Source: a virus
Lineage: Duplodnaviria; Caudoviricetes
Length of the DNA stretch: 33,848 nt
Reading direction: 5' to 3' (one strand)
Virus record (IMG/VR): IMGVR_UViG_3300049070_000231
Span: 1 to 33,848 of that record
The notes beneath the pieces are model-generated. The model worked only from the letters and a program-made list of their open reading frames with translations. It did no database searches and was not told the origin of the DNA. The translations under genes and the position numbers were made by a program. The stretch's first letter is position 1, and each line of letters opens with the position of its first letter. Below are positions 570 to 28,545 of the stretch, piece after piece.

Positions 570-1409
570 TCAGCCTCGCTTACCGCCTGCTGCCCTTCGA
601 AGGTTGAGGTGCGGCTTCTCGGATTCCGTCGGCCCGTAGCGCACTTCGCCAACAGCTGCAGCGGCGCGCCGGCACTCCGTGACCATCTGCGCGAACTCGG
701 TCGGCTCCATGCTGAAGGCCGCGTCCGGCCCGCCATCCGCCCGGGATAGCGTCAGGTGCTTCTCGATCACGTCCGCGCCCAAGGCGGCGGCTGCCACCGC
801 CACCCCGATGCCGAGCGAGTGGTCCGAGATGCCGACCTTCGGCGCATGCGCCCGCAGATCCTGCATGGTCCTGAGATGGGCGTCGCGCGCGTCAGCCGGG
901 TAGGCGCTGGTGCACTTGAGCAGGGTGAGATCAGGGCAGCCCCCGTCGAACGCTGCAGCAGCGGCCCTGAACACCTCGCTCTCGGACGCCATCCCCGTGG
1001 AAAGGATGAGCGGCTTGCCGGTGCGCGCGGCGTACGCGACCAGGTCGGTGTCCGTGAGTTCGAAGCTGGCGATCTTGTACATCGGGCAGCCCAGCTTCTC
1101 TAGGAAGTCCACGTCGTCGGGGTGGAACGGGGCCGAGAAGGCGGTCAACCGCAACCACTTGGCGAGATCGAACAGCGGCGCGTGCCAGGAGCGCGGCGTG
1201 TGAGCTTCACGGTAAAGGTCCAGAGCCTTGCGACCCGCCCAAGGGCCTGCTTCGATGACCTTTTCAGGGTCGACCATCTGCTCGGGCGTGAAGGTCTGCA
1301 GCTTCACCGCATCCGCGCCGGCCGCTGCTGCGGCCTTGACGATGTCCACCGCCCGGTCGAACGAACCGAGGTGGTTCGCCGACACCTCCGCGACGATGAA
1401 TGGCTTCAC
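570..1409 (-). CDS. pseI: Pseudaminic/sialic acid synthase (PseI/NeuB family), lacking the C-terminal SAF/antifreeze-like domain
   Basis: Motifs AEVSANH, ADAVKLQTF, KIASFE, ILSTGM, LLKCTSAYPA, GISDHS, IEKHLTLSRADGGPD. 279 aa. Confidence 0.9.
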   Translation of the reverse strand: MKPFIVAEVSANHLGSFDRAVDIVKAAAAAGADAVKLQTFTPEQMVDPEKVIEAGPWAGRKALDLYREAHTPRSWHAPLFDLAKWLRLTAFSAPFHPDDVDFLEKLGCPMYKIASFELTDTDLVAYAARTGKPLILSTGMASESEVFRAAAAAFDGGCPDLTLLKCTSAYPADARDAHLRTMQDLRAHAPKVGISDHSLGIGVAVAAAALGADVIEKHLTLSRADGGPDAAFSMEPTEFAQMVTECRRAAAAVGEVRYGPTESEKPHLNLRRAAGGKRG

Positions 1410-1927
1410 TTCGCCCTTGCGAGCGCCTGCAGCGCGGCAGCGGCTTCCCGGATCGTGGCTTCCGAGTATTCCCGGCGCCCGAGGTCGCTCAAGAGAGAAA
1501 CCGCGACCGCTCCAGCCGTGTCGCGATACCTGCGCACCCGATTGGCCTCGTCGCGCAGCTTCGCGTCCTCCTCATTGTTCTCGATCGGCTTGATCGCGTC
1601 CCTGGAGCCCTTCTTCACCAGCGCCACCACCACGTAGGGCCTGGGCGGCTCGCCGGCGAACGCGGGCACCGCCCTGCGCCCGGCCATTGCTGGCTGCGCG
1701 GCGCGCGCCGGCAGGCCCTGAGGTCGCGCTATGTGCACCTCCGGGGTGGCTTCCATGTACTCGCAGGACGCGCGGAAGCCCGCGATGTCTTTCTCGGTGA
1801 TTTGCTCCACCATGTCGGGGTTCGCGTGCCGACGCTTCCACAGCAGCAGCTGCACAACCAGCGCAGGGTCGGCTACCGCCTCCTCAGCGAACTGGTCGAG
1901 CGCGTCCTTCGGTTTCCTCTTCGCCAT
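1406..1927 (-). CDS. Hypothetical protein
   Basis: 173 aa with a purine-rich RBS (GGAGGAGAGG) before ATG 1927. Stop overlaps the pseI start (GTGA). Confidence 0.7.
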   Translation of the reverse strand: MAKRKPKDALDQFAEEAVADPALVVQLLLWKRRHANPDMVEQITEKDIAGFRASCEYMEATPEVHIARPQGLPARAAQPAMAGRRAVPAFAGEPPRPYVVVALVKKGSRDAIKPIENNEEDAKLRDEANRVRRYRDTAGAVAVSLLSDLGRREYSEATIREAAAALQALARAK

Positions 1928-2381
1928 CCTCTCCTCCTGGTAGTTCGTAGGTCAGTTGAATGAGCCGCCCGCTCAGCTTCCCGCCGAACAGGTGCTTGGA
2001 ATGCTCGTTGCTGGGCGCGACGTTGGCGATCCACTTGCCGCGGCGCTCGCTCGGGATTGCAGGCAGTGGTTCGTGCTTCTCCATCAGCGCGCGCACGGCC
2101 TGCTCGCCGTAGCCCTTTCCGCGGTGCTTCTTCAGTAGGAATATGCCGATCTCGTTGTGGGTGGTGGCGTTGACGTAGCCCACCAGCGCGCCCTCGACCT
2201 CGATCAGGTACCAGCAGCGGTACGGGCGGCGATGCACGAACTGGCGATGCTGTTCCGGCGTCGGCATCGTGAACGAGATGTTCATCTCCGGGTCTGCCGC
2301 ACGCTCCGCCATTACCTCGTAGAGGAAGTCGATGGCGCCCGGCAAGATGCCGGTGCCTTGGTAGACGTCGACCAGTTTCAT
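1884..2381 (-). CDS. GNAT N-acetyltransferase (PseH-like)
   Basis: Acetyl-CoA motif A (EIGIFLLKKHRGKGYG) and ANVAPSNEHS. Lies in the sugar cluster with ATGA coupling to the upstream gene. Confidence 0.8.
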   Translation of the reverse strand: MKLVDVYQGTGILPGAIDFLYEVMAERAADPEMNISFTMPTPEQHRQFVHRRPYRCWYLIEVEGALVGYVNATTHNEIGIFLLKKHRGKGYGEQAVRALMEKHEPLPAIPSERRGKWIANVAPSNEHSKHLFGGKLSGRLIQLTYELPGGEDGEEETEGRARPVR

Positions 2382-3130
2382 ACGCGGGCCTTTATTCCGT
2401 TCGCCTGCAGGAACCTCGATGCTTCCTTCGGCGTGGCATCGGTGAACTGGAACAGCGCCCCGGCCGCCACGGCGTTCGCGCCGGCCTTGATCGCTTCAAC
2501 CATGTCCGGGTACCCAGAACAGCCGCCGTGGGCGACCACGGGAACACGCACCGCGGCGCGCACGCTGCGGATCAGGTCGAGGTCGTATCCCTGCATCGTC
2601 CCCTCGCGGTCAACCGCAGTAAGCAGGATCTCGCCGGCGCCCTGCTCGGCTATCCAATTCGCCCTTTCCGGCGCCACTTCGCGCATGCACCGAACGCCCG
2701 GCCTGTCGTCGTCGACGTCGTCGCGCGCTTCGACCACATCGCAGGTAACGACTATGGCTTGACTTCCCACCGTATCGGCCGACCGGCGCACGAGGTCGCC
2801 GCCGATCCACGCCGCCGTACCTATCACCACTTTGTCGGCGCCGGCGCGAAGCAACGCCTTGACATCCGCCAGAGTTCGCACGCCTCCGCCGACAGCGATC
2901 GGCACAAACAGTACCTCGGATAGCTCGGCGATGAGAGAAAGGTCCGGCCCCCTGCCCTCTGGCGTCGCGCCGACATCCAGCAGCACTACCTCGTCGACTC
3001 CTCGCGTGGCGTGGATGCGCACCGCCTGCGCAGCGATCCCGACAGAGCGCCACGAATTGAAGCGCTTGCCCTTCACGAGCGCGCGCCCGCGGCAGAGGAT
3101 GGTGGGGATCACGCGCTTGGCGAGGCCCAT
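2378..3130 (-). CDS. HisF-like cyclase of the glycan amidation type (WbuZ/HisF2)
   Basis: KRVIPTIL, LVKGKRF, GVDEVVLLD, PIAVGGGVR, GADKVVIG, GAGEILLTAVDREGTMQGYD. Start placed at ATG 3130 (TGATG overlap). Confidence 0.88.
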   Translation of the reverse strand: MGLAKRVIPTILCRGRALVKGKRFNSWRSVGIAAQAVRIHATRGVDEVVLLDVGATPEGRGPDLSLIAELSEVLFVPIAVGGGVRTLADVKALLRAGADKVVIGTAAWIGGDLVRRSADTVGSQAIVVTCDVVEARDDVDDDRPGVRCMREVAPERANWIAEQGAGEILLTAVDREGTMQGYDLDLIRSVRAAVRVPVVAHGGCSGYPDMVEAIKAGANAVAAGALFQFTDATPKEASRFLQANGIKARV

Positions 3131-3294
3131 CAGCCCGGCACCTCGTAGCGCACCGCACCGCCCTCGGCCACGTAGCGCACGGTCATGCAGGTCCCGCAGC
3201 GCGAAACCTGCTCGCCGTTGTCCTCCTTGCCGAGGTCGGCGAAGCCGTGCTCGTAGCCTGGCCGGCACGGTGGTTCATCAAGCTGCGGCTTCAT
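3130..3294 (-). CDS. Small hypothetical protein (54 aa, CxxC)
   Basis: MKPQLDEPPCRPGYEHG...RCGTC...YEVPG fills the gap between two genes and is coupled to the HisF-like start. Below the ORF-track cutoff. Confidence 0.55.
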   Translation of the reverse strand: MKPQLDEPPCRPGYEHGFADLGKEDNGEQVSRCGTCMTVRYVAEGGAVRYEVPG

Positions 3295-4378
3295 GCGTCG
3301 CTCCTTTCAGCTTCAGCGTCTTGTCGCCGGGCTTGGCGTCGAAGAGATTCCAGTTCGTGTGCTTGTCCAGCGCTTCCCAGAAGGCCGTCGCGGTCATGCC
3401 GATGCGCTCGAGCACCTCGTGCAGCTCCACGCCGGCGTACCAGTACGGGAAGCGCCCGTCCCTGGCCTTGACCAAGGCCAGCGCCCCTTCGCGCGTCATG
3501 AGCCCCGCTCGGACGTCTACCGAAAGCTGCGCAGCGAAGCGCCCGAACCCATACTTCCGGTACATGCCGTGGTCATGAATCCCCGTCTGCCCGTTGTCGA
3601 GGTTCTCGTGCGACCACCAGTTCGTAATGCTCGGAGTGACTTGGCGCATACCTGCTGCCTTGGCGATCTCCGCGTTGCGGTGCGAGTCCCACGGCAGGTA
3701 CTGGCCGAGGAAGTGCGCCTCGAAGTGCTGGTCGATGTCGGCCGGCAGAACGTAGTCGACCAGGTCGCGCGAGCCGAGGCCCTCGACGCCGATGAGGTCC
3801 TGCGGGCGCAAGCCAAGGAAGCCGCCGAACTCCGAGCGCCAGCGCCGGTTCATGGTCTTCGCTTCCTGGCTGTCGAGCGGCCCGCCGTACTGGTTCTGCG
3901 GGTTCTCGCCGTAGAAGATGAGCGGCCGGCGCAGGTCGCGCGCCGCGACCATGGGCGTCGTGAAAATGCTGACGTGCTCGGGCCAGCTGATGTCGCCCAC
4001 CATGGTGAGGCCGATGCGGTTCAGCTTGGCCCGCACGGTGGCGTTCGGGCTCACCTCCACGGTCTTCGCGTAGCGCTTCAGGTTGTCGATGTTCAGCCTG
4101 CCCACCGGCGTCAGGTGGCAGGTCGTCGCCGTGACCACCGTAACGTCCGCGCCGCGCTTCAGGAGTTCCAGCACTTGGTAGTGGCTGTCCTTGCCGCCGC
4201 TGGAGGGCACGATGCACTCGCCGTTGAAGCGGTTGAGCAGTTCAACCAGCGCGCGCTCGCGCGCCTGCCAGTCGATCTGCGGGCGCTGCTCGTAGGCGAT
4301 GCAGGCGGAGCAGATGCCGTTCACGAACGCCGTGTCGGGACGCGTGTCTGGAATGACGCAGCGGAGGCAGCGGATCAC
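3278..4378 (-). CDS. N-acetyl sugar amidotransferase (WbuX/PseA-like PP-loop)
   Basis: N-terminal CxxC...PDTRP...GICSAC and IDW, PP-loop SGGKDS, GENPQNQYGG, YRKYGFGR. GTG 4378 overlaps the HNH stop. Confidence 0.9.
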   Translation of the reverse strand: MIRCLRCVIPDTRPDTAFVNGICSACIAYEQRPQIDWQARERALVELLNRFNGECIVPSSGGKDSHYQVLELLKRGADVTVVTATTCHLTPVGRLNIDNLKRYAKTVEVSPNATVRAKLNRIGLTMVGDISWPEHVSIFTTPMVAARDLRRPLIFYGENPQNQYGGPLDSQEAKTMNRRWRSEFGGFLGLRPQDLIGVEGLGSRDLVDYVLPADIDQHFEAHFLGQYLPWDSHRNAEIAKAAGMRQVTPSITNWWSHENLDNGQTGIHDHGMYRKYGFGRFAAQLSVDVRAGLMTREGALALVKARDGRFPYWYAGVELHEVLERIGMTATAFWEALDKHTNWNLFDAKPGDKTLKLKGATHEAAA

Positions 4379-4716
4379 GACAGAGCCCTCCGGAACGTTC
4401 TCATGCGATGGCAATTCGCGCAGACCACTTCGCATTTGGCGACCTCCGCCAGGAGCCGCTCTACGCTGGTAGACGACACGCGCCGACTGATGGTGAATTC
4501 CTTGTCGCGATTGATGTGGTCGAATTCCATAACTGGCGGCGGATACTTGACGCCACAGTCCTTGCAGGGGACGTCCTTGATCTTGTTGAGCACTTCTATT
4601 TTTCTGCGGCGCGTGTTTTGAGCGGCCAGTTTTTTCCGCTCGGGAAACTTGGTCCGCCAGCGCAGGTCGGCTGCACGCCCAGCGGCCAATCTTTGCTCTC
4701 GGTCTTTGTAAGGCAT
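4375..4716 (-). CDS. HNH endonuclease
   Basis: CKDCG...MEFDH...KCEVVCANCHRMRT with a basic N-terminus. Start ATG 4716 (TGATG overlap). Confidence 0.85.
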   Translation of the reverse strand: MPYKDREQRLAAGRAADLRWRTKFPERKKLAAQNTRRRKIEVLNKIKDVPCKDCGVKYPPPVMEFDHINRDKEFTISRRVSSTSVERLLAEVAKCEVVCANCHRMRTFRRALS

Positions 4717-5294
4717 CAGCGTTTGACCAGAAGCCATGCGCGACATTGGTCGAACCCTTGCGCCACCGTGTCCGCGACCATGGTCAGCCCCATCGCCTCA
4801 TAGAGGTCGCCGAACGGCCGCTTCCACAGCCGCTCGGCGTTCCCTCGGTACAGCACTTCCTCCTCCTTCGGAGCCGCATACTCGACCGCCAGCACCCAGC
4901 GGCGGCTCGCGTTGATGATGGCCTGCATGGTGTCGGGCAATTCGGCGGGCGCGACGTGGATCAGCACGCCGGAGGTACACACGAGGTCGAAGTGCTCGCG
5001 ATACCATCTCCCCGCGACGCGCGCGGACATGAGGGAGGCGTCAAGTCCCCCGTCGCGGGCTTCCACCACCGCATCGGCGTTCACGTCCACGCCAACGGCG
5101 ATAACCGTGCGATCCGCCGCTCGGATGGCGCGCAGGTTCCAGCCCGCGTTGCAGCCCACGTCGAGCACCGAGCGCGCCTGCGTGATGGCCAAGATGTTGC
5201 GCCAGAACGGCACGCGGTCTAGCCAGTTCACGCGGTTGCGCAGCGTGTAGGCGGTCCCGAAGTCCCCGGCCCAGAATTGCTCTTGAGCGTTCAT
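4716..5294 (-). CDS. Pseudaminic acid biosynthesis-associated SAM methyltransferase
   Basis: QEQFWAGDFG..Y..RN N-terminus, SAM motif VLDVGCNAGWNL, FDLVCTSGVLIHV, YRGNAERLWKRPFG. Confidence 0.88.
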   Translation of the reverse strand: MNAQEQFWAGDFGTAYTLRNRVNWLDRVPFWRNILAITQARSVLDVGCNAGWNLRAIRAADRTVIAVGVDVNADAVVEARDGGLDASLMSARVAGRWYREHFDLVCTSGVLIHVAPAELPDTMQAIINASRRWVLAVEYAAPKEEEVLYRGNAERLWKRPFGDLYEAMGLTMVADTVAQGFDQCRAWLLVKR

Positions 5295-5373
5295 GCGGAG
5301 GGGTCCGGGATGATCAATCTACTGCTGGCGATCTTCGTTGGATTCATGGTCCCTGCAATGGTTGTGGGAGCGT

Positions 5374-6003
5374 TCACCGGGGATCCATCCCTTCAGACGT
5401 TGGCTGGAATCGTCGGGGCGATCTATGCGGTGTGGGTGAATCTGCGGAAGCCTTGAGCGCCGCGTACATCTCCTCGGCGCGCTTCCAGTCTTCCTCGGTG
5501 TTGATGTCGATCCAACGGCCCTCGGGGCGAGTGAGCCCGACGAAGCTGTCGAGCGGCACGTCTTCTAGGAAGTGCGCCGATGGCCCCCAGTACAGCCAGC
5601 CCTCGATGTAGGTGTAGTTGAGACGGCTTTCGCGCAGCCACTCGTACATCTCGGTGATGTCGCTCGCGCGCATCATCGGCGCGGTGGCATAGATGCAGCA
5701 GGCGTAGCCGATATGCTTGGGCTCCGCCAACATGATGTCTCTCAGAACTCTGGCGGCAACTTCCTGCGTACCCACAGCATCGACCGCAAGCTCCTCATCT
5801 CTCTCAATCCACTGCGCGCCGCAGGCTTCGGCAATGCCCCCGATCTCGTGATCCTCGGTCGAAACCACGATCCTCTCGAACAGCCCGCTCGCCTTCGCCG
5901 CCTCGATGCTGTAGGCGATGATCGGCTTGCCGTGGAATGGACGGATGTTCTTCCTCGGGATGCGCCGCGAGCCACCGCGAGCCGGGATGATGGCTACTCG
6001 CAC
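5374..6003 (-). CDS. pseF: CMP-nonulosonate synthetase (PseF/NeuA cytidylyltransferase)
   Basis: AIIPARGGSRRIPRKNI, GKPIIAYSIEAA, IVVSTED, CCIYATAP, DINTEEDW. Start placed at GTG 6003. Confidence 0.88.
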   Translation of the reverse strand: MRVAIIPARGGSRRIPRKNIRPFHGKPIIAYSIEAAKASGLFERIVVSTEDHEIGGIAEACGAQWIERDEELAVDAVGTQEVAARVLRDIMLAEPKHIGYACCIYATAPMMRASDITEMYEWLRESRLNYTYIEGWLYWGPSAHFLEDVPLDSFVGLTRPEGRWIDINTEEDWKRAEEMYAALKASADSPTPHRSPRRFQPTSEGMDPR

Positions 6004-6263
6004 AGCGCCCTCTCCCTCTGCGCCTTCAGGCGCTTGCGCCGATGCCCCGCCACGCTGCCGATGTGGTAGCCGCGGCAGACCGTGCAGTGGTAAACGTTGG
6101 TCACTTTGCGCAGGTCGATGCGGATCGTGCGCTGCGCCGACCCGAACGAGTCGAAGCGATGCTTGCCCTCGCACTCGGAAACCCTTCGCCTCTCCTCCAT
6201 GCGCCTCGCCACCGCGTCCTCTTGCACGAGCGTTCGTAGCTCGAAGAATTCCTCGCGCCTCAC
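5994..6263 (-). CDS. Phage hypothetical protein with a Zn-binding motif
   Basis: CEGKHRF...YHCTVCRGYH. GTG 6263 overlaps the upstream stop. Confidence 0.65.
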   Translation of the reverse strand: MRREEFFELRTLVQEDAVARRMEERRRVSECEGKHRFDSFGSAQRTIRIDLRKVTNVYHCTVCRGYHIGSVAGHRRKRLKAQRERALCE

Positions 6264-6610
6264 ACTTGCCTCCCCTGCGCCATCGCCAGCACCACGTCCA
6301 CGATCTCCAGCGCCGCCTTTTTCGGCGTCCACTTCTTCTGGTACAGGTTGTTCATCACGATGGCCGCGCGAGCGACCATCGCATCGCGCAGGTTGTCGGT
6401 GACGCGGGCGCGCACTTGCTCGGCGATGTAGCTGCCGTCTTTGATCGGCTCGCCGGGAAACTTGGCGTTGTGCGCCGCGCGCGCCATGCCCTCGGCGATG
6501 GGGAAGGCGTCGCCAGGCTCCATGACGAGGTTCTGCGTCGGCTTGGAGAATTGCAGGATCACCTTCCCGTCGCGGGACTCCACGACGATCTTCGTCTTTG
6601 GCTCGCTCAT
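6260..6610 (-). CDS. Hypothetical protein
   Basis: 116 aa, coupled by 4-nt overlaps at both ends. Confidence 0.7.
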   Translation of the reverse strand: MSEPKTKIVVESRDGKVILQFSKPTQNLVMEPGDAFPIAEGMARAAHNAKFPGEPIKDGSYIAEQVRARVTDNLRDAMVARAAIVMNNLYQKKWTPKKAALEIVDVVLAMAQGRQV

Positions 6611-7269
6611 TGGAATATCGCCATTTGAGATAGGTCCGGGTAATCATCCGAAGGCAGCGGGTCGTTGTGCTTCGGCAGCGCCGCCATCGCCCACAGCAGG
6701 CGCGTCGATACGTCCGGCGAGAGGTAGCAGTGCCATCCGATCTGGGTGAAGTTGTCCATATTTGGCGGCACGCCCTCGGTACGACCGTCGAAGCGCGCGC
6801 GCCGCAGCCATTGGTCGGCCTCGTAGTTGTCGTGCAGGATCGCCCCGCCCTGCGTGTCGGCAAGCGTCTTCGTGGCGTGGAAGGACACGCAGACCATCGC
6901 GTTGCTATCCACGGTCCAAAACTGGTCGGAGTCATACATTCCGCTTGTGAGCCATCGCGCGGAGTCGAAGACCGGCAATGGCTTCAACTGGTACGCGCCG
7001 CGCCACGCCTCGTCGCGGAACGTCGGCCGCCCGCCCGCGTGGATGATCGACATCGGCACGCTGACGTAGGTGCGTTTGGGGATTTCAATGGGCGTGCGTC
7101 GGAACTCGACCCACTCGCGCCCGTCCTCGATCGTCACTTGATTACGTAGATGCCACGCCACCGCGAGCAGCAGCGCCATCGTGCAGCTGTTCACCGCCAC
7201 GGCGTACCGCGCGCCGGTGTACTGGCACAGCGCGCGCTCGAAGTCCTTGGTCACTTGGTGCGGGTTCAT
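6607..7269 (-). CDS. Short DegT/DnrJ/EryC1/StrS PLP aminotransferase (PseC-like)
   Basis: FERALCQYTGARYAVAVNSCTMAL, DSA, PLP-lysine motif SFHATKTL..QGGAI. ATG 7269 (ATGA overlap). 220 aa. Confidence 0.85.
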   Translation of the reverse strand: MNPHQVTKDFERALCQYTGARYAVAVNSCTMALLLAVAWHLRNQVTIEDGREWVEFRRTPIEIPKRTYVSVPMSIIHAGGRPTFRDEAWRGAYQLKPLPVFDSARWLTSGMYDSDQFWTVDSNAMVCVSFHATKTLADTQGGAILHDNYEADQWLRRARFDGRTEGVPPNMDNFTQIGWHCYLSPDVSTRLLWAMAALPKHNDPLPSDDYPDLSQMAIFQ

Positions 7270-7490
7270 AGCCACCACGGCCTTTTCATCTCGAAGAATG
7301 TGTGCGCTAGGACCGCGTTGTGCTTGAACCACCCGGCACCGAGCAGCCGCTCCCTGATGCGCATGTCCTCCATCGCAGCTTGGTACGGAGCGGGCGCTTC
7401 CTGATGAATCTCCGGCAGGTCGACGAACGAGAAGCGCGGCGCGACGCCGAGAAACGAGGGCTGGCCACTGTCGTGCGAGATCGCGCTCAC
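7266..7490 (-). CDS. Hypothetical protein
   Basis: 74 aa, coupled by 4-nt overlaps to pseB and the aminotransferase. Confidence 0.55.
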   Translation of the reverse strand: MSAISHDSGQPSFLGVAPRFSFVDLPEIHQEAPAPYQAAMEDMRIRERLLGAGWFKHNAVLAHTFFEMKRPWWL

Positions 7491-8323
7491 GCCACCGCCT
7501 TCAGCCGCTCGCGCAGCTCGGACAAGTCTAGGCGCCGCGCCGTCTCGCTGGAGTTCCCGGCCTTCATCGACTCGTGCGGCTTCTCCCAGTCCTGCAGCCC
7601 GATGTGCCGCAGCTTCTCCGCGCCCATCGCTTCCGCAAGGTCGCCAAGCCTGAACGCTGGCAATTCAGGAATGGCGAGTTCTCCGCCCTGCATCGACATC
7701 AGCGTGTCGACCACCAGCTTTGCCGCCTCCTCCTTCGTCATCCAGAATCTCGTGCAGTCTGGGTCCGTGATCGGCACCGGCACGTCCTTGGCGATGAGCT
7801 CGCGCCAGGTCGGGATCACCGACCCGGTCGACCCTGCCACGTTCCCGTAGCGCACCACCGAGAAATGCGGCCCTTGAGGATCATTCGCGGCGAGGAACAG
7901 GCTTTCCGCCATCGCCTTCGACTGCCCGTACGGCGACACCGGCTCGAACGCCTTGTCGCTCGACACGAGCACCAGCCGCCTTACGCCGGTCCTACGCGCG
8001 GCCTCGATCACGTTCATCGATCCGAGCACGTTCGTCTTGATCATCTCGTCCGGGCAATAAGCCCCGACCTCGATGCGCTTCAGCGCTGCCGCGTGGATCA
8101 CGCAGTCCACGCTCTTCATCGCCCTCTCCAGGCGCTCAACGTCGCGCACGTCGCCGATGAACCAGCGCAGCCGCGGGTCGTCGTTCAGGGCCGAGCGCAT
8201 CCGCGCCTGCGGGTACTCGCCGCGGGAAAAGATGCAGATGCGCTGGTGGCCATCCTTGAACAGGCGCTGCACCAACGCCTGGCCGAGAAACCCAGACCCG
8301 CCGGTGATCAGGATCCCGCTCAT
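7487..8323 (-). CDS. pseB: UDP-GlcNAc 4,6-dehydratase (PseB/FlaA1 family)
   Basis: ITGGSGFLG, IFSRGE, FIGDVRD, IHAAALK, KTNVLG, SSDKA, YGQSK, VRYGNVAGSTGSVIP, TRFWM. Confidence 0.9.
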   Translation of the reverse strand: MSGILITGGSGFLGQALVQRLFKDGHQRICIFSRGEYPQARMRSALNDDPRLRWFIGDVRDVERLERAMKSVDCVIHAAALKRIEVGAYCPDEMIKTNVLGSMNVIEAARRTGVRRLVLVSSDKAFEPVSPYGQSKAMAESLFLAANDPQGPHFSVVRYGNVAGSTGSVIPTWRELIAKDVPVPITDPDCTRFWMTKEEAAKLVVDTLMSMQGGELAIPELPAFRLGDLAEAMGAEKLRHIGLQDWEKPHESMKAGNSSETARRLDLSELRERLKAVA

Positions 8324-8622
8324 GTCGACACACAAGTGGCCGACAGCCCGTATTCGTAGCGGTATGGCGGCCCCGTGCGCTCGAGATTCCCGGCCGATGA
8401 CATCTCAGTCAGGCGCCGGCGCAGCGTAGAGCCAGGAACGTGAGGCAGCGCGCGGTAGAACTGCCTGCACGTCAGCCGGCTCGCGCTTTCCCTGAGCACC
8501 GACACAATCTCCGCCCCCGCCTTGCGTAGCTTGTTCCGCTGCTGACTGCTGAGTGGTTTCCCGGTGGTGACGGGCAGCAGCCACGTAGAGCCGATTGTTT
8601 TTTTCATTGTTGGGTCCTTCAT
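8320..8622 (-). CDS. Putative winged-helix DNA-binding protein
   Basis: IVSVLRE..RLTCRQF...GSTLRRRLTEM..AGNLER pattern. ATG 8622, coupled at both ends. Confidence 0.55.
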   Translation of the reverse strand: MKDPTMKKTIGSTWLLPVTTGKPLSSQQRNKLRKAGAEIVSVLRESASRLTCRQFYRALPHVPGSTLRRRLTEMSSAGNLERTGPPYRYEYGLSATCVST

Positions 8623-14064: not shown

Positions 14065-14074
14065 GTCGGCGCGA

Positions 14075-14139
14075 GTTAAGCACACTTCGCATTGCTACGT
14101 CAAGTGCACTTAGCCGGCCCCTTGTTAAGATCGCTTAAC
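14075..14139. promoter_or_regulatory. Right operator: three 16-bp operators (GTTAAG-N4-CTTAAC consensus)
   Basis: GTTAAGCACACTTCGC 14075-14090, GTCAAGTGCACTTAGC 14099-14114, GTTAAGATCGCTTAAC 14124-14139. A minus-strand TTGACG -35 sits at 14098-14103. Confidence 0.85.
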
Positions 14140-14738: not shown

Positions 14739-14778
14739 GCTTAGTGCACTTGACTGAACATCGTTAAGTGTGCTTTAC
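14739..14778 (+). promoter_or_regulatory. Left operator/PL: two 16-bp operators overlapping a TTGACT -35
   Basis: GCTTAGTGCACTTGAC 14739-14754 and GTTAAGTGTGCTTTAC 14763-14778 are near reverse complements of the OR sites. Confidence 0.82.
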
Positions 14779-14786
14779 TCTCTCCC

Positions 14787-17830: not shown

Positions 17831-18802
17831 ATGGAAGTCGTTTCAAAGCCGCGCGTGGCCTACGCGCAATTCATCGCTTCAAAGCAACCGGGGACGGTGG
17901 CGTGGTTGATCGAGCGCTACATCAAGGAAATGAACGGGCTGGATGGCCGGCCCGCGGTCAAGACGCTCGGGGCCTCGCACGAGTACACGCTGCGCATCCT
18001 GCAGCGCTCGCCGATCGGCGCGAAGCTGGCGCTGGATCTGAAGAAGACGGACGTGATCGAGCACTGCCGGTTGCGGCGGATGGAAGTCTGCGCGGCGACG
18101 GTCATGCAGGACATCACCTTCCTCACCGGGGCGCTCAAGTACGCCGGGGCAGCCTGGGACGACTGCGAAAAGATCTCGGATACCGCCGTCAAGAATGCGA
18201 AGCCGTTCCTCATCAAGCACCAGCTCATCGGGAAGAGCGCGCCCCGGCGGCGCAGGGTGGCGAACGAGGAACTGGAGCGGCTCATCGCGCACTTCGAGGA
18301 GCGCAACCGCAACCCACGCACGAAGGTGGACATGGTGCGGGTGACGCTCTGGCAGTTCTACTCCTCGCGCCGGATCGGGGAAACCTGCCGCCTCTTGTGG
18401 TCGGACTGGAACCGAGAGGACCAAACGATCCTCGTGCGCAAGATGAAAGACCCGCGCAACCGCTCGAAGGACAAGCTGGTGGCGCTCACGACTCAAGCGC
18501 AGGCGATGCTGGAGGCGCTGTGGGAGATCCGCGACGAATCGGAGCCGCGCATCTTCCCCTACGTGCGGCAGACGTGCATTTCCAACTACGTCGAGGCCAA
18601 GCACCAGCTCGGCATCAAGAACCTGCATCTGCACGATTCGCGCGCCGAAAGAGCTACGCGCCTGGTCGAGGACGAGAAGCGCACGCCGGCCGAAGCGATC
18701 CTCGTGACCGGGCACGACACGACGGCGGTTTTCGAGCGCACGTACATGCGCCTCGATGCGCGCAAGTTCAAACGCGACGAGCTAGCCGCAACTCCAGCAT
18801 AG
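17831..18802 (+). CDS. Second tyrosine recombinase, not att-adjacent
   Basis: Catalytic set RRIGE (R), RKMKDP (K), LHLHDSR (HxxR), TGH (H), ERTY (Y). AAGGAG RBS. Confidence 0.88.
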   Translation: MEVVSKPRVAYAQFIASKQPGTVAWLIERYIKEMNGLDGRPAVKTLGASHEYTLRILQRSPIGAKLALDLKKTDVIEHCRLRRMEVCAATVMQDITFLTGALKYAGAAWDDCEKISDTAVKNAKPFLIKHQLIGKSAPRRRRVANEELERLIAHFEERNRNPRTKVDMVRVTLWQFYSSRRIGETCRLLWSDWNREDQTILVRKMKDPRNRSKDKLVALTTQAQAMLEALWEIRDESEPRIFPYVRQTCISNYVEAKHQLGIKNLHLHDSRAERATRLVEDEKRTPAEAILVTGHDTTAVFERTYMRLDARKFKRDELAATPA

Positions 18803-19125: not shown

Positions 19126-19398
19126 ATGAGCGAGCCGATCAGGGCTGGCGATTGGGTAGTTGTGGTGAGGACGTGCTGCGACGGAACTGCCAAGGAATCG
19201 CTTGGGCTTATGGGGCCCGTGCAATACATCAAGAATCCGATCTGGATCAGATGCCACTATTGCAAGAAAGAGGCGACGGTCAACAGGGCCAGATTCAACG
19301 ATGGCGAATGGCCGGTGGCCCCTCTCGACTGGCTGAAGCGCATCCCGCCCATGTCCGAGCTTGAGGGCGAGAAGCGCGACGAGGAGATCACCGCGTGA
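19126..19398 (+). CDS. Hypothetical Cys-containing protein, paralogue of 21192..21482
   Basis: GDWVVVVRTCC...CHYC...WLKRIPP...DEEITA. Confidence 0.7.
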   Translation: MSEPIRAGDWVVVVRTCCDGTAKESLGLMGPVQYIKNPIWIRCHYCKKEATVNRARFNDGEWPVAPLDWLKRIPPMSELEGEKRDEEITA

Positions 19399-19435
19399 AG
19401 GTCAGCCGCTCCTTCGGATCGACTCGATGAACAAC

Positions 19436-19593
19436 GGACAGCGCTGTGGAGTTCGCGTAGCTCAGCAGAGAGCACCGGCCGAGCCGGGGGTCGCTGGGGG
19501 TAGCTCCCAGCCGCGAATGAAGCAGAAAGACCAATCTGCGCCTAGGCATGCGGAAAGGTCGAAGCAGGTATCCAGCCCTGCCGCTGTCCACCC
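19436..19593 (+). ncRNA. Candidate structured RNA containing a tRNA-like cloverleaf (19451-19519) with a 3-nt anticodon loop
   Basis: Inner acceptor GTTCGCG/CGCGAAT, TAGCTCAG..GAGC D arm, CCGGC-CGA-GCCGG, GGGTC, GCTGG/CCAGC. Outer GGACAGCG/CGCTGTCC stem. Fills a 200-bp gap in a tightly packed operon. Confidence 0.65.
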
Positions 19594-19601
19594 TATTCGC
19601 C

Positions 19602-19814
19602 ATGACTGACTCGACGGAAAAAGATGATGCCGACAAAGTGCTGCGGGAACACCCGCTGGCCACCAAGCGCGGGCTTGAACTCATGCTCGGCCTACTGCTT
19701 CACACCGGCGCGATGTGCCCGAAGTGCGGCTTCGGGACTCGCGTGACGAGCAAGCGATGGGCGAAGTGCAAGAAGTGTGGAGAGCGCGTCGAGCGCAGGG
19801 AGTTACCGAAATGA
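19602..19814 (+). CDS. Zn-ribbon hypothetical protein
   Basis: CPKCG...CKKCG. Confidence 0.6.
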   Translation: MTDSTEKDDADKVLREHPLATKRGLELMLGLLLHTGAMCPKCGFGTRVTSKRWAKCKKCGERVERRELPK

Positions 19815-20053
19815 CGAATCGCTGCACGGACGAAGGAGCGCTTCGGCTTCGGGTCATCAACAATCCGAAGCCGGGCGACAAGCTGGCGAGCAGGTCTGCG
19901 GCGCGGCACAAGACGCGCAGGGTGACAGATCGGACGCTCGGCGGTGACGTTCACTACTGCTGGGATGAGCGCTCGAATTACCGCGACCGCTGCACGCTGC
20001 TGGAATGGCAGGAGTTTTGCGCCTACGCGCGGATCATCAAGGTGGCGAAGTGA
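19811..20053 (+). CDS. Hypothetical protein
   Basis: ATGA-coupled 80-aa ORF. Confidence 0.55.
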   Translation: MTNRCTDEGALRLRVINNPKPGDKLASRSAARHKTRRVTDRTLGGDVHYCWDERSNYRDRCTLLEWQEFCAYARIIKVAK

Positions 20054-21192: not shown

Positions 21193-21482
21193 TGCCTTCC
21201 ACCGATAAGCACGACTCTACGCAGGTCAGCGTCGGCGACCTGGTCGTCGTCCTGAAGGGCTGTTGCGACCGCGCGATGCAAGGCGTCGTCGGTGTCCACG
21301 CGACCGTGCTGCGGTTCTACGACGATCCGAACCGGCTCTGCTGCTTCTGCGAGTCGCCCATCCCGACCAAACGCGCGGAACTGGATCACCCGAAGTGGAA
21401 CTGTCCGGTGCCGTGGCTAAAGCGCATCCCGCCGCTCGCCGAGCCGGAACGAGAGCGCCACGACGAGGAAATCACGGCATGA
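21192..21482 (+). CDS. Hypothetical Cys-containing protein, paralogue of 19126..19398
   Basis: GDLVVVLKGCC...CCFC...WLKRIPP...DEEITA. TGATG overlap. Confidence 0.7.
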   Translation: MPSTDKHDSTQVSVGDLVVVLKGCCDRAMQGVVGVHATVLRFYDDPNRLCCFCESPIPTKRAELDHPKWNCPVPWLKRIPPLAEPERERHDEEITA

Positions 21483-22806: not shown

Positions 22807-23017
22807 AAGACTGAAGAAATTCGTGCAGCGCAAGTACCCCTACGCCGGCGCGCAGTTGTCAGCGATGCACGGCTGGCAGATTGTGGACTACGGCGAGGAC
22901 GGGTACGGAACAACGGTTATCGGGCGCAGCGGCAAGAACGAACTGATGGCGTGGTCGAATGCCGCCGCCCGTATTCGCCGTCGAGTCGCTTCCCCACATG
23001 GAAAGCCCTCGCGGTGA
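22799..23017 (+). CDS. Hypothetical protein
   Basis: 72 aa. Stop overlaps the start of the next gene. Confidence 0.5.
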   Translation: MAERLKKFVQRKYPYAGAQLSAMHGWQIVDYGEDGYGTTVIGRSGKNELMAWSNAAARIRRRVASPHGKPSR

Positions 23018-23880
23018 ACCCGTACCGCATCGAAGGCCCTGCAGAGATCGGCTTCAGCGGCGGGCGCAGCTCGGCCTACATGCTCCGGCACATCTTGGAC
23101 GCCCACGGCGGCGAGTTGCCTTCCGACGTGCATGTCGGCTTCCAGAACACCGGCAAAGAGCGCCCCGAGACCTTGGACTTTATCCACCAGTGCTCGACGC
23201 GCTGGAGCGTGCCGGTGACGTGGCTGGAATACCACCGCACCTGGGGTCAGCCGGAGGATCAGCCAGCTTATCGGGTGGTCTCGTATGAGACCGCGAGCCG
23301 GAACGGTGAGCCGTTCAGGATGATGTTGGACTACTACCGACAGTACAGGGAAGAGGTCAAGGACGCGCCCCCGATCCTTCCTAATCCAGTGAATCGCATG
23401 TGCACCTCTTACCTAAAAATCCGGGTAGCGAAGCAGTGGATGCAGAGCTTCGGATACGAAGCCTGGGATGCGGTGATCGGCATTCGAGCCGACGAGCCGA
23501 AGCGCTACACCCGCATGTCTGCCGCCAATGGACGGGAGCGATGGGAGAACGTTATGCCGATGTACGAGGCCGGCGTATCCAAGGAGGACGTAAACGCCTT
23601 CTGGTCCGCGCAGGACTTCGACCTCGGCATCGACTCTGACCTCGGCAACTGTGACCTGTGCTTCTTGAAGCACGAGAACAAGATTTACCGGGCGCTGCAA
23701 GTGAACCCGGAGCTGGGCGACTGGTGGATCGAGCAGGAGGAGCGCACTGGACAGCGCTTCCGAAAGGACCGCCCTGGTTACAAGGAAATGAAGTGGGTGG
23801 CCGTGCAGATGAACAAGCAAATCCCGATGTTCGGCACGGTCGAGGAGGAATCCTTGGCCGACTGCATCTGCGGCGAATGA
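23014..23880 (+). CDS. PAPS-reductase-family (PP-loop) phage protein
   Basis: FSGGRSSAYM, FQNTGKE.PETLDF, RMCTSYLK, IGIRADE..R, GNCDLCFLK, C-terminal CIC. GTG 23014. Confidence 0.88.
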   Translation: MNPYRIEGPAEIGFSGGRSSAYMLRHILDAHGGELPSDVHVGFQNTGKERPETLDFIHQCSTRWSVPVTWLEYHRTWGQPEDQPAYRVVSYETASRNGEPFRMMLDYYRQYREEVKDAPPILPNPVNRMCTSYLKIRVAKQWMQSFGYEAWDAVIGIRADEPKRYTRMSAANGRERWENVMPMYEAGVSKEDVNAFWSAQDFDLGIDSDLGNCDLCFLKHENKIYRALQVNPELGDWWIEQEERTGQRFRKDRPGYKEMKWVAVQMNKQIPMFGTVEEESLADCICGE

Positions 23881-23908
23881 CCATATCCCCTATGAACAGC
23901 GGCGGGAC

Positions 23909-24496
23909 ATGAATCTTTGCGGCGAAAGCATCAGGGTGGTGCATCCGTTGTTCCCAACGGAAGGGGGCGGTTCGATCCCGACCTCGCCGCTCCAACTCTT
24001 CATGGGCTGGATCGACATGGACGTGGCCGTGCCGCTCAACGAGCTTTGGCACTCCCGCCTGCCGCTCTTCACCAGCCCGCCCGAGAAGTGCAAGGCCATC
24101 GCCGCCGAGCACGCGGGCATCTTCTACGCTGCCGCGATCTGGTCGCCGCCGGTAGCCCGCAAGCTGAACTGGACAGGCCGCTACGAGCTGCGCCGCTTCG
24201 CCATTGCTCCCGACGCGCCGAGACATACCGCGAGCCGAATGCTGCGCGTGATGCGCCTGCTGATCGAGCAGGACATGCCCGACGTGGCGATCCTGATGTC
24301 CTACCAAGACGCCGACTCTCACCTCGGGACTATTTACCGGGCCGCAGGATGGGTCAAGGTGGTCGAGAGCAAGGTGCCCGTGGAAGGCTGGTCAACGCGC
24401 GCTGGCCGAGCGAAAGCGCAGACCAACGCCAACAAGGTGCGTTGGGAGTACGTCATACGCAGACCTCAGAACGATATTAGACAGGAGAAGTCATGA
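23909..24496 (+). CDS. Mom-like (GNAT-fold) DNA adenine modification protein
   Basis: WHS.LP, AIWSPPVAR, YELRRFAI..DAPR..ASRML, LMSYQD..H.GTIYRAAGW, KVRWE. Confidence 0.72.
   Translation: MNLCGESIRVVHPLFPTEGGGSIPTSPLQLFMGWIDMDVAVPLNELWHSRLPLFTSPPEKCKAIAAEHAGIFYAAAIWSPPVARKLNWTGRYELRRFAIAPDAPRHTASRMLRVMRLLIEQDMPDVAILMSYQDADSHLGTIYRAAGWVKVVESKVPVEGWSTRAGRAKAQTNANKVRWEYVIRRPQNDIRQEKS
23919..23994 (+). tRNA. tRNA-Gly-like cloverleaf with encoded CCA, embedded in the 5' end of the Mom-like ORF (non-canonical)
   Basis: Perfect acceptor GCGGCGA/TCGCCGC + T + CCA, D arm GCATC/GGTGC, anticodon arm TCCGT-TGTTCCCA-ACGGA, T loop GGTTCGATCC. Confidence 0.75.
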
Positions 24497-27001: not shown

Positions 27002-27277
27002 ATGAGCTCGCACCTCTCCGACGACGAGATCGCCAGCATCACGAAGCCGCTCACGCAGGGCGCGGCGAGGATCAAGTATTTCCGTCGGCTCGGCGTGCGC
27101 GCCGAGGCCCGGCCCAACGGGCAGCCGCTGGTGCTGCGCATCGACTTCGAGCGCCGGCGCCAGGAAGCAGCGAACGACAGCCGCAAGGCGGCGCCGGATT
27201 GGACCGAGTTCGAGAAAAGGGTACGCTATGGCCGGGATGGGGAGAAAGCGGAAGGACGGAAACCCGCTCGGGCTTGA
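27002..27277 (+). CDS. xis: Putative excisionase (DUF4224-like)
   Basis: LSDDEIASIT..L.Q.AA...YFRRLG......PNGQPLV..., PDW. Overlaps the int start. Confidence 0.75.
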   Translation: MSSHLSDDEIASITKPLTQGAARIKYFRRLGVRAEARPNGQPLVLRIDFERRRQEAANDSRKAAPDWTEFEKRVRYGRDGEKAEGRKPARA

Positions 27278-28319
27278 GCCGCGGGTGGAGTTTCACCACG
27301 GGCAGTTCCGGTATCTGCACCGGGACGGCCGCAAGGAATCGCTCGGCAAGGACATCGGCAAAGCCAATGCTAGAGCGCGCGTCTACAACGACCCGGACGG
27401 CAACTTCGGCACGAACAGCCACTTCCTGCGCCTCTTCCTGGCGGATGCGCGCGCCGGGCGACTGCCCGCCGGCCGCAAGCTGAGCGAGCGCACGATCGCC
27501 GACTACGAGGCCGAGGCGAACATCTTCGCCCTCTCGCCGCTCGGCAAGATGACGCCCGCCGACTTGGTGCGGGATCCGAGCCTGATCAGCGACTACCGGG
27601 ACCGGCGCATCACGGAGTCCGGCAAGGGCAAGGTGCAGGCGAACCACGCCCTCGCCATGCTCTCCTCGATGTTCTCCTGGCTGATCGAGCGTGGCCACAG
27701 CCCGGGCCTAGCGGTCAACCCGGTGAAGCTGATCCGGCGCTTCGCCCGCAAGCCGAAGGACCGCTACGTCGAGGACAGCGAGTACCGGCCGGTCTACGGC
27801 GTCGCGCCGCGGAGCGTTTGCATGGCCCTGCGGCTCGCCTACAAGACGCTGCAGCGCCCGGCGGACCTCCTGCGCCTAACGCCCTCCCCCGTGCGCCTGA
27901 AGGCCGTGGCGGGCACTGAGAAGCGCGTCCTGACCTTCCAGCAGGGCAAGCGCGGGCGCATCGTGGACATCGAGGTGGACGCCGAACTCGACGAGATCCT
28001 CGGCATGCTGCGCAACTCCGACGAACGCGTGGTGCGGCTGCCGCAGGCGCTGATCCACGGCCGCGGCGGCAAGGGCTACACCGAGGACGGGCTGGGGTCG
28101 ATGCTGCGGCGCTACTGCACGGCGGCCGGCGTAAAGACCTTCGGGCTGATGGATGTGCGCGCGAAGGGCGCCACCGACATGTACCTCGCTGGCGTACCGC
28201 TCGAGAAGATCCAGCTCCTGATGGCGCACAAGTCGGTGCAGACCACCGAGATTTACATCAAGCGGCTGCTCGCCACCATCTCCACGGTCGCGCCTAACGC
28301 CGTCGCAGTGGGGAATTGA
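27228..28319 (+). CDS. int: Phage integrase (tyrosine recombinase)
   Basis: N-terminal MGRKRK arm domain, QRPADLL (R), QQGKRG (K), MDVRAKGATD, AHKSVQTTEIY (H, Y). Adjacent to attP. Confidence 0.92.
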   Translation: MAGMGRKRKDGNPLGLEPRVEFHHGQFRYLHRDGRKESLGKDIGKANARARVYNDPDGNFGTNSHFLRLFLADARAGRLPAGRKLSERTIADYEAEANIFALSPLGKMTPADLVRDPSLISDYRDRRITESGKGKVQANHALAMLSSMFSWLIERGHSPGLAVNPVKLIRRFARKPKDRYVEDSEYRPVYGVAPRSVCMALRLAYKTLQRPADLLRLTPSPVRLKAVAGTEKRVLTFQQGKRGRIVDIEVDAELDEILGMLRNSDERVVRLPQALIHGRGGKGYTEDGLGSMLRRYCTAAGVKTFGLMDVRAKGATDMYLAGVPLEKIQLLMAHKSVQTTEIYIKRLLATISTVAPNAVAVGN

Positions 28320-28545
28320 ACTCGCAAGTAGTTGAACGGCAAGGGACGCACTTTGCCATTTTTCGCACTTTTCATTCCCCGGCGCTCGCGGTGATTCTCC
28401 GACAGCGCACAGTGTTGCGCGATTTCCGTCCGTGGACTGTTAATCCGCAGGTCGTAGGTTCGAGCCCTACTCGGGGAGCCAATAATCAAGTAGATACGAG
28501 CGACGCGAAGCCAGCGTTCCGCAGAATTTTCCCCACTGGGGAATA
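28306..28545. repeat. Putative integrase arm-type sites flanking attP
   Basis: CAGTGGGGAA (28306-28315), its exact inverse TTCCCCACTG (28529-28538), and CTGGGGAATA (28536-28545). An IHF-like AATCAAGTAGATA lies just 3' of the core. Confidence 0.6.
28434..28481 (+). other. attP core: 3' half of tRNA-Asn(GTT)
   Basis: GGACTGTTAATCCGCAGGTCGTAGGTTCGAGCCCTACTCGGGGAGCCA gives the anticodon arm, T arm and 3' acceptor strand with CCA. No 5' half upstream. Confidence 0.9.

Follow-up and report, generated by a model that had tools for sequence, protein, structure and literature searches.

The window, i.e. the whole stretch of 33,848 nucleotides that was analysed, is a 33.8-kb linear virus record, about 46% complete, carrying temperate-phage genes (Cro-like, RecT, YqaJ recombinase, two integrases, primase and helicase). 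The element described here covers 158 nt (positions 19436 to 19593, + strand) and is intergenic, on the gene strand of a rightward operon of small genes. Two ORFs lie next to the RNA: a small ORF of 90 aa (19126..19398, +), which ends 37 nt before the element, and a 70-aa ORF with a weak zinc-ribbon likeness (19602..19814, +), which starts 8 nt after the ACCC that terminates the element. No evident Shine-Dalgarno sequence was found between this ACCC and the start codon at 19602. The region was recovered with zero differences in soil runs of two different studies, namely in one assembled contig of run X1, possibly the source of the record, spanning 19354-20000 and in a 151-nt contig of run X2 spanning 19538-19681. 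A 69-nt repeat (19330-19398 and 21414-21482, 75% alike) forms the 3' ends of two small ORFs, and this ORF end recurs in contigs of runs X1 and X3.

A predicted ORF at 19361-19609 was considered as a coding alternative and rejected, as it has no homologue and no Pfam or PHROG match. Its GC content by codon position is flat (0.65/0.59/0.63), while the third-position GC of five neighbouring genes is 0.67-0.90. No conserved coding signal was thus found in this ORF. The element is non-coding, and the proposal of an earlier note that it is a non-decoding tRNA mimic is supported. The RNA is predicted from its sequence not to decode.

The predicted fold of the whole element has a free energy of -77.7 kcal/mol (z -3.7), equalled by one of 200 shuffled sequences. 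Its frame, referred to as the outer shell, consists of an 8-bp acceptor-like helix formed by 19436-19443 (+) and 19582-19589, of which the 5' strand is followed at 19444-19457 (+) by the region that aligns with the D arm of related RNAs (see below). On the 3' side, a conserved A precedes a T-arm-like hairpin with an 8-nt loop (19563..19581, +; hairpin proper 19564-19581), and the 3' strand of the helix is followed by A73 and CCC, without CCA (19582..19593, +). The 8-bp stem, the T-arm-like hairpin and the ACCC were all found where the earlier note had placed them. The GCAGA/TCTGC hairpin that it had drawn inside the element obtained a pair probability of 0.0; in its stead, a 4-bp helix (19444-19447 with 19522-19525, +; probability 0.99) closes the inner cloverleaf across a 3x3 internal loop. 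Pair probabilities of 0.93-1.0 were obtained for the outer helix, the outer hairpin and the inner acceptor. The rest of the middle contains a bulged hairpin (19529..19560, +; z -2.2) that takes the position of an anticodon arm and lacks an anticodon loop. The middle taken alone is also far more stable than expected (z -3.3), none of 200 shuffles being as good. The nested fold is real.

The inner cloverleaf (19451..19519, +) has stems of 7, 4, 5 and 5 bp with 21 of 21 pairs formed. The acceptor (19451-19457 with 19512-19518) contains 7 bp including one G-U and is followed by U8-A9; the D stem (19460-19463 with 19470-19473) closes a 6-nt loop without GG; the stem at the anticodon position (19475-19479 with 19483-19487) has 5 bp and a loop of only 3 nt; and a variable loop of 5 nt leads to the T stem (19493-19497 with 19507-19511), which lacks TTC. 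G19519 occupies position 73, and there is no CCA. The earlier description of this part (7-bp acceptor, U8-A9, 5-nt variable loop, 3-nt loop, neither TTC nor CCA) was accurate; it is added here that the 'T loop' zips up to give an 8-bp hairpin with a 3-nt loop. All stems are whole, and all three loops are devoid of tRNA loop bases.

Using a relaxed cloverleaf scanner, 21 of 21 pairs were found in none of 3000 dinucleotide shuffles of the 120-nt middle, and in one of 1126 tiles of the window, which was the element itself. The best global alignment to 66 tRNAs scored 60, compared with 39+-3.5 for 100 shuffles (best shuffle 52). A sequence-only tRNA profile gave 3.1 bits, a value topped by 7 of 2000 shuffles. 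ARAGORN called neither a tRNA nor a tmRNA on the element, and Rfam returned nothing over it at E<=10. Measured against canonical tRNA (RF00005), the inner element shows the geometry (7/4/5/5 stems, U8, 5-nt variable loop) and lacks the 7-nt anticodon loop, the TpsiC loop, the GG and a score at the family cut-off. It is built with the geometry of a class I tRNA, and we consider an origin from a tRNA probable. An assignment to tRNA-Asp, with which G73 and the variable loop agree, was rejected, since the best alignment was to a phage tRNA-Gly and tRNA-Asp came fourth. An attachment-site remnant was also rejected for the inner element, of which no direct repeat was present among the repeat families listed. 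An attP-like tRNA half sits elsewhere, just past the integrase gene at 27228-28319: positions 28434-28481 (+) correspond to a tRNA 3' half comprising an anticodon loop with GTT, a T arm and CCA, and judging from this sequence it is likely an attP with tRNA-Asn as target.

No second copy of the inner element was obtained by a D-arm pattern search or by blastn. The exact D-arm pattern gave one chance match, and blastn gave short matches alone, in phages and plasmids. An 18-nt match in cluster M mycobacteriophages was rejected as a second copy as it does not fold as a cloverleaf. In Mycobacterium phage Bongo (locus L368, 2926-3290), an unannotated structured stretch between the tmRNA and tRNA-Asn genes carries this 18-nt match to the inner T arm. 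In Ochrobactrum phage POI1126 (L333, 4128-4145), a T loop that departs from the family type described below shares six bases with the inner T loop of the window, possibly by chance.

The outer shell, on the other hand, has many relatives. An exact search with the outer T arm led to an unrelated AT-rich phage (L002) with the same arm, in which the acceptor helix differs from that of the window copy yet still pairs, and the middle differs as well. A relaxed T-loop search gave four more loci, which have a D arm in common. Scanning for this D-arm motif produced 119 loci in 15 of the 64 parts of a viral collection, from which about 510 stretches are estimated. A shell was completed in 107 of 120 D-motif matches, 102 of them distinct, and removal of three forced pairings left 99 members. 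The order of parts is a 7-bp helix of free sequence, a CG linker, the D arm, a middle, an A, the T arm and the 3' strand of the helix. The middle, which replaces the anticodon and variable arms, measures 45-209 nt (median 83), and the T loop has 8 nt in 91 of the 99 members.

Covariation was analysed with 55 aligned members picked by length and good pairing. Both sides of a pair changed in 168 cells, compared with 36.6 in shuffles, and 11 of 16 pairs covary, i.e. all seven of the acceptor helix and four of five in the T stem, while slid controls of the alignment dropped to 29-43% paired. Since the D arm was itself the search motif, its invariance in this sample is built into the scan; the counts for T55, C56 and A58 are likewise partly built into the shell finder. 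The covariation sought by the earlier note is thus strong for the outer shell across the family, whereas the inner cloverleaf, with no copy to be compared with, is left without such support.

A CCA is encoded in 4 of the 99 members, position 73 is free (A/C/G/U 39/21/21/18) and G3-U70 occurs in one of 99, which indicates that no aminoacylation identity has been kept. The closing helix exceeds 7 bp in 82 of the 99 members and is longer by at least 3 bp in 37 (41% and 6%, respectively, when permuted), and, in keeping with tRNA-like handling, U is found at position -1 in 41 of 99.

No Rfam family was found over any member in scans of 5, 20 and 11 loci. Unannotated members were identified in four cultured phages: Caulobacter phage DMCA, Acidovorax phage AP1, Ochrobactrum phage POI1126 and Pseudanabaena phage Pan3. 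Among 401 genomes of one betaproteobacterial order, the D motif was present in five and the full shell in three; a genome scan gave 34 matches with two copies, both in one MAG; and blastn in 5,426 E. coli genomes gave no member. A metagenome scan, whose pattern was too loose, gave 117 matches in 38 of 64 parts and a full shell in none. In the literature searched, which included few subscription papers, neither the shell family nor the nesting of a tRNA within a tRNA-like RNA was found described. The family is apparently undescribed and widespread in phages; it may be among the models of a survey of 10,006 viral RNAs (PMC10690425), which was searched in part. A separate small RNA candidate lies at about 330-460 of locus L037, between a -10-like box and a terminator; it has a hairpin with the same 8-nt loop and scored only 14 bits with the family model.

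The window copy was compared with these members in several ways. Its T arm scored 25.5 bits on the T-arm profile, above 24 of 91 members (range 10.6-34.2), the next site in the window reaching 3.1 bits; in seven phage records, 674,342 positions in all, a score of 25 bits was attained by family members alone. The outer helix is close in sequence to its counterpart in member L169 and has one pair more. With the covariance model the window copy obtained 26.3 bits and the third-best site 12.3 bits. This score alone proves little because a chance D-arm motif at 6866-6976 (+), on the antisense strand of a DegT gene and the source of false matches of 26-31 bits, received 28.1 bits. In anatomy, an 8-bp helix (at least 7 bp in the family) is stacked on a 5-bp T stem, an A precedes this stem, the T loop is an 8-nt loop of the family type, and a middle within the range of 45-209 nt, without anticodon arm and without CCA, lies between genes on the gene strand. 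What the copy lacks is the CG linker and the D arm with GG, of which only a vestige is left at 19442-19457, skipped by the model. In the aligned region (19444..19457, +) a family-type D hairpin has probability 0.0: positions 19444-19447 are now paired with 19522-19525, and the 3' strand of the vestige has become the inner acceptor strand (19451-19457). The copy is an outlying member of the family, with a typical T arm and an eroded D arm. The earlier note had centred on the inner cloverleaf, which was seen at no other locus; conservation applies to the outer shell.

The T loop of the window also carries C57, while a purine occupies this position in 98 of the 99 members of the D-motif sample. 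With the GG of the D loop lost as well, the outer D/T elbow is probably weakened, whereas typical members keep it. These losses raise the question whether the window copy is simply a member interrupted by a captured tRNA gene, both of them decaying and the copy doing nothing, the stems persisting because they are GC-rich and recent. Apart from the missing GG and purine, no second copy with the window middle was found in any scan, and short contigs of relatives (151 nt, depth 2; X3 record 13 and X4 record 16) join the flanking genes to other DNA. The middles of the family are moreover no more structured than shuffles (median z -0.25), which suggests that the slot tolerates junk. Against such decay, none of the inner (21), outer (8) or T-stem (5) pairs is broken although all three inner loops have changed, two helices foreign to tRNA are present (the closing helix and the zipped T loop), and the middle is far more stable than shuffles. 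C57 is shared by five other members (L002, L238, L344, L352 and L366), of which L002, L352 and L366 have an altered D arm around an intact shell. An inert, decaying insertion is considered rather unlikely, but is the strongest competitor of the reading preferred below.

The 102 middles fall into 98 clusters. Such hypervariability, together with a length of at least 45 nt, would suit an antisense carrier, in which the shell serves as processing and stability frame and the variable middle pairs with phage or host mRNAs. A precedent exists in the C4 RNA of P1/P7, an RNase P-processed phage regulatory RNA (cited in PMC4919922, consulted in part). The search for long matches spoke against it. At 63 loci, the longest antisense match of the middle was 8.8 nt in its own flanks and 8.6 nt in foreign flanks. 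The longest match within the phage's own transcript was 11-12 nt, equal to shuffles and to foreign middles, and among eight whole or near-whole phage records only DMCA stood out (15 nt), with a same-sense match inside a gene. No long host match was seen in two genomes, C4 RNA was not matched, and the middle of the window is folded shut. An antisense carrier is regarded as very unlikely, although pairing by a short seed or with targets in other phages may still occur.

Another reading is a signal in cis, the shell being an RNase P or RNase III site and protective 5' structure that sets the stability or translation of the next gene. In the window, 8 nt separate the end of the shell from a start codon that has no evident Shine-Dalgarno sequence, and across the family an SD-like motif plus start follows within 70 nt in 46 of the 99 members. 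A -10-like box is present 4-9 nt upstream of 12 of the 99 members, compared with 2-6% at control offsets, only 2 of 102 are followed by a terminator-like hairpin, and long closing helices are common, all of which count for this reading. Conversely, the next gene is on the opposite strand (convergent) in two of the four annotated phages (DMCA and Pan3), members occur within tRNA arrays and in tandem, and the genes downstream of members have no family in common. As for the downstream ORF of the window (19602..19814), the RNA is absent upstream of 13 relatives, ten of which were covered by a further scan. A cis-acting role appears unlikely.

The company of the family points to tRNA rather than to a particular gene. 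A tRNA gene is present in 10 of 62 family loci and in none of 37 control loci, which were unmatched (p 0.007), and all 27 tRNAs at family loci are on the same strand as the member. In L200 and in phage POI1126 the member lies a few bases before a tRNA gene, and tandem copies occur in L238, L209 and L200. No recurring neighbour was found among 110 ORFs flanking members, which makes a host partner likely. At L002 (3048-3145) the member is directly followed by a second tRNA-like RNA, which shares the acceptor sequence and has a canonical TpsiC loop and a long irregular arm at the place of the anticodon arm. Directly downstream of the member in L198, an abiF RNA was detected at 1381-1416 (-) with 41.1 bits, above the Rfam cut-off.

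A second case of nesting was found in Pseudanabaena phage Pan3, a cultured cyanophage. Inside its family shell lies a tRNA relic whose D and TpsiC arms are intact and whose anticodon arm has collapsed (34.9 bits, Rfam cut-off 29). This relic differs in sequence from that of the window and follows a family D arm that is intact, which makes independent capture of the two likely. Nesting is rare, as no TpsiC arm and no cloverleaf above 17 of 21 pairs was found in the 99 middles of the D-motif sample. The middle of L241 contains a D-arm-like piece (4.7 bits), and near the family member of L232 there is a tRNA at 890-1037 (-) (Rfam 33.7 bits) whose anticodon arm is replaced by about 89 nt.

A pairing of the T arm with the 3' end of 16S rRNA was also evaluated and rejected. 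The T-arm stretch gave -20.1 kcal/mol with the last 25 nt of E. coli rrsH and -7.7 kcal/mol with the free last 13 nt, a value about equal to the -7.4 of the T-arm hairpin itself; the pairing averaged -5.7 over the 99 members.

By analogy, the shell family appears most like T4 RNA C, C4 RNA, YrlA and the tRNA-like domain of tmRNA in its working, in that a tRNA frame is used without decoding. The window element nevertheless falls outside each of these groups, as well as outside T4 RNA D and the allo-tRNAs. The acceptor and T arm of tmRNA enclose a large insert at the place of the anticodon arm, YrlA has an acceptor-like helix that is internal, and C4 RNA is a cloverleaf-like frame with a payload. 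The acceptor-like helix of the shell RNA is formed by its two ends, as in tRNA. The tmRNA layout of an acceptor and T arm around an insert, the same as here, is also summarised in part of PMC4201824. tmRNA differs in that G3-U70 is found in one of 99 family members and that the window has no G3-U70, CCA, tag frame, or ARAGORN or Rfam match. YrlA, a bacterial Y RNA, is encoded beside Ro60 according to the part of PMC4201824 used here; for the shell family, no TROVE gene was found in five member-bearing records or among 63 ORFs of the window (a contig about 46% complete), and the Rfam YrlA model matched neither the window element nor the member loci scanned.

C4 antisense RNA of P1/P7 (RF01695) is a phage regulatory RNA too, made from a precursor on which RNase P acts (Hartmann 1995, cited in a passage of PMC4919922); the window shows no RF01695 match and no complementary target nearby. 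RNA C and RNA D of T4 (rnaC and rnaD; species 1 and 2 RNA) are small RNAs of a phage as well; they measure 119-139 nt and their genes lie within a tRNA array. Their roles are given as unknown, and no nested tRNA is reported, in the part of PMC3014915 relied upon here. The fold of RNA C places a TpsiC hairpin beside a terminal helix and large non-tRNA arms, like the shell family, yet the T loop of RNA C is of the canonical 7-nt type, its predicted fold shows no family D arm, and it scores at most 4.8 bits with the family model; RNA D gave no match. The allo-tRNAs and irregular polycistronic tRNAs are likewise tRNA-like genes of phages and soil, with irregular stems and often clustered, and some genes of this type are inactive in translation (Mukai et al., PMC5389517, in part). 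As described there, the acceptor branch of allo-tRNAs has 12 bp (8/4 or 9/3), and these tRNAs also retain a long V arm, an anticodon arm and G73 or U73. The outer shell of the window, by contrast, has an 8/5 branch without any anticodon arm and carries A73, a position that is free across the family. The family motifs are absent from the running text of the PMC5389517 supplement.

Our leading reading, which is held tentatively, is that the 158-nt stretch is an outlying member of the shell family with a likely tRNA-derived cloverleaf inside, likely matured by the host from an early-operon transcript, and likely acting as an uncharged, non-decoding decoy by its shape. The rightward operon would supply the transcript that contains the RNA. 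That RNase P makes the 5' cut, about 12 bp away from the outer T loop, and that the 3' end is trimmed back to the helix is somewhat probable; RNase P cleaves model substrates made of an acceptor plus T arm and stacks on the tRNA elbow (PMC11143913, in part). The host tRNA-maturation enzymes would in this manner release a stable RNA that is neither charged by a fixed synthetase nor used in decoding, and tRNA shape would be what selection keeps. The tRNA gene presumably entered the middle by recombination and lost its loop bases afterwards, a loss that would protect the outer RNA from internal cleavage by RNase P and anticodon nucleases. Were the middle cut all the same, the shell would remain joined by its helix.

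Two functions suggested earlier for the mimic are not supported for the inner element. PrrC reads anticodon sequence, modifications and stem breathing, as stated in sections of PMC3014915, and the inner 3-nt loop would make a poor bait for anticodon nucleases since PrrC needs the anticodon sequence and its modifications. An RNase P signal in the inner element is opposed by the absence of the T loop on which, following the portion of PMC11143913 cited, RNase P stacks; the RNase P site, if any, is likely the outer one. As the likeliest use, a decoy for host proteins that read tRNA shape is proposed with less than even confidence. Against the leading reading, the long closing helices do not fit a plain pre-tRNA end, and the outer elbow of the window copy is eroded. 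A wider proposal is quite doubtful: phages would possess a natural tRNA scaffold, matured and protected by host enzymes and open to any RNA cargo, and at least twice the cargo would have been a tRNA that afterwards lost its cleavable or readable loops, the two tRNA-shaped bodies of the resulting RNA soaking up tRNA-targeting defence enzymes while escaping both destruction and the ribosome.

What phage tRNA-like RNAs such as T4 RNA C and D do is a long-standing question, and tRNA is the target of several bacterial defences. Should the family turn out to be an RNA-based counter-defence, it would add a new class to the RNA weapons of phages. Should it be a natural scaffold, it would parallel the engineered tRNA scaffold used for stabilising RNAs. 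As the nested copies demonstrate, a whole tRNA body can be accommodated in the middle, which is relevant to the origin of these RNAs and to whether selection acts on shape only. As members are present in cultured phages with growable hosts, processing and function are directly testable.

Other features of the window were noted. Two tyrosine integrases and a PAPS-reductase-like gene adjoining a Mom-like gene are found among 17831-18802, 22951-24496 and 27228-28319, the latter two genes possibly constituting a DNA modification pair. A 47-nt inverted repeat (14068-14114 and 14739-14785, 77% complementary) occupies the divergence region beside the Cro-like gene. Finally, a sugar-nucleotide cluster at 570-8335 (-) encodes NeuB, a GNAT, a HisF-like protein, a methyltransferase, a cytidylyltransferase, a DegT aminotransferase and Polysacc_synt_2, and resembles a pseudaminic or legionaminic acid pathway.
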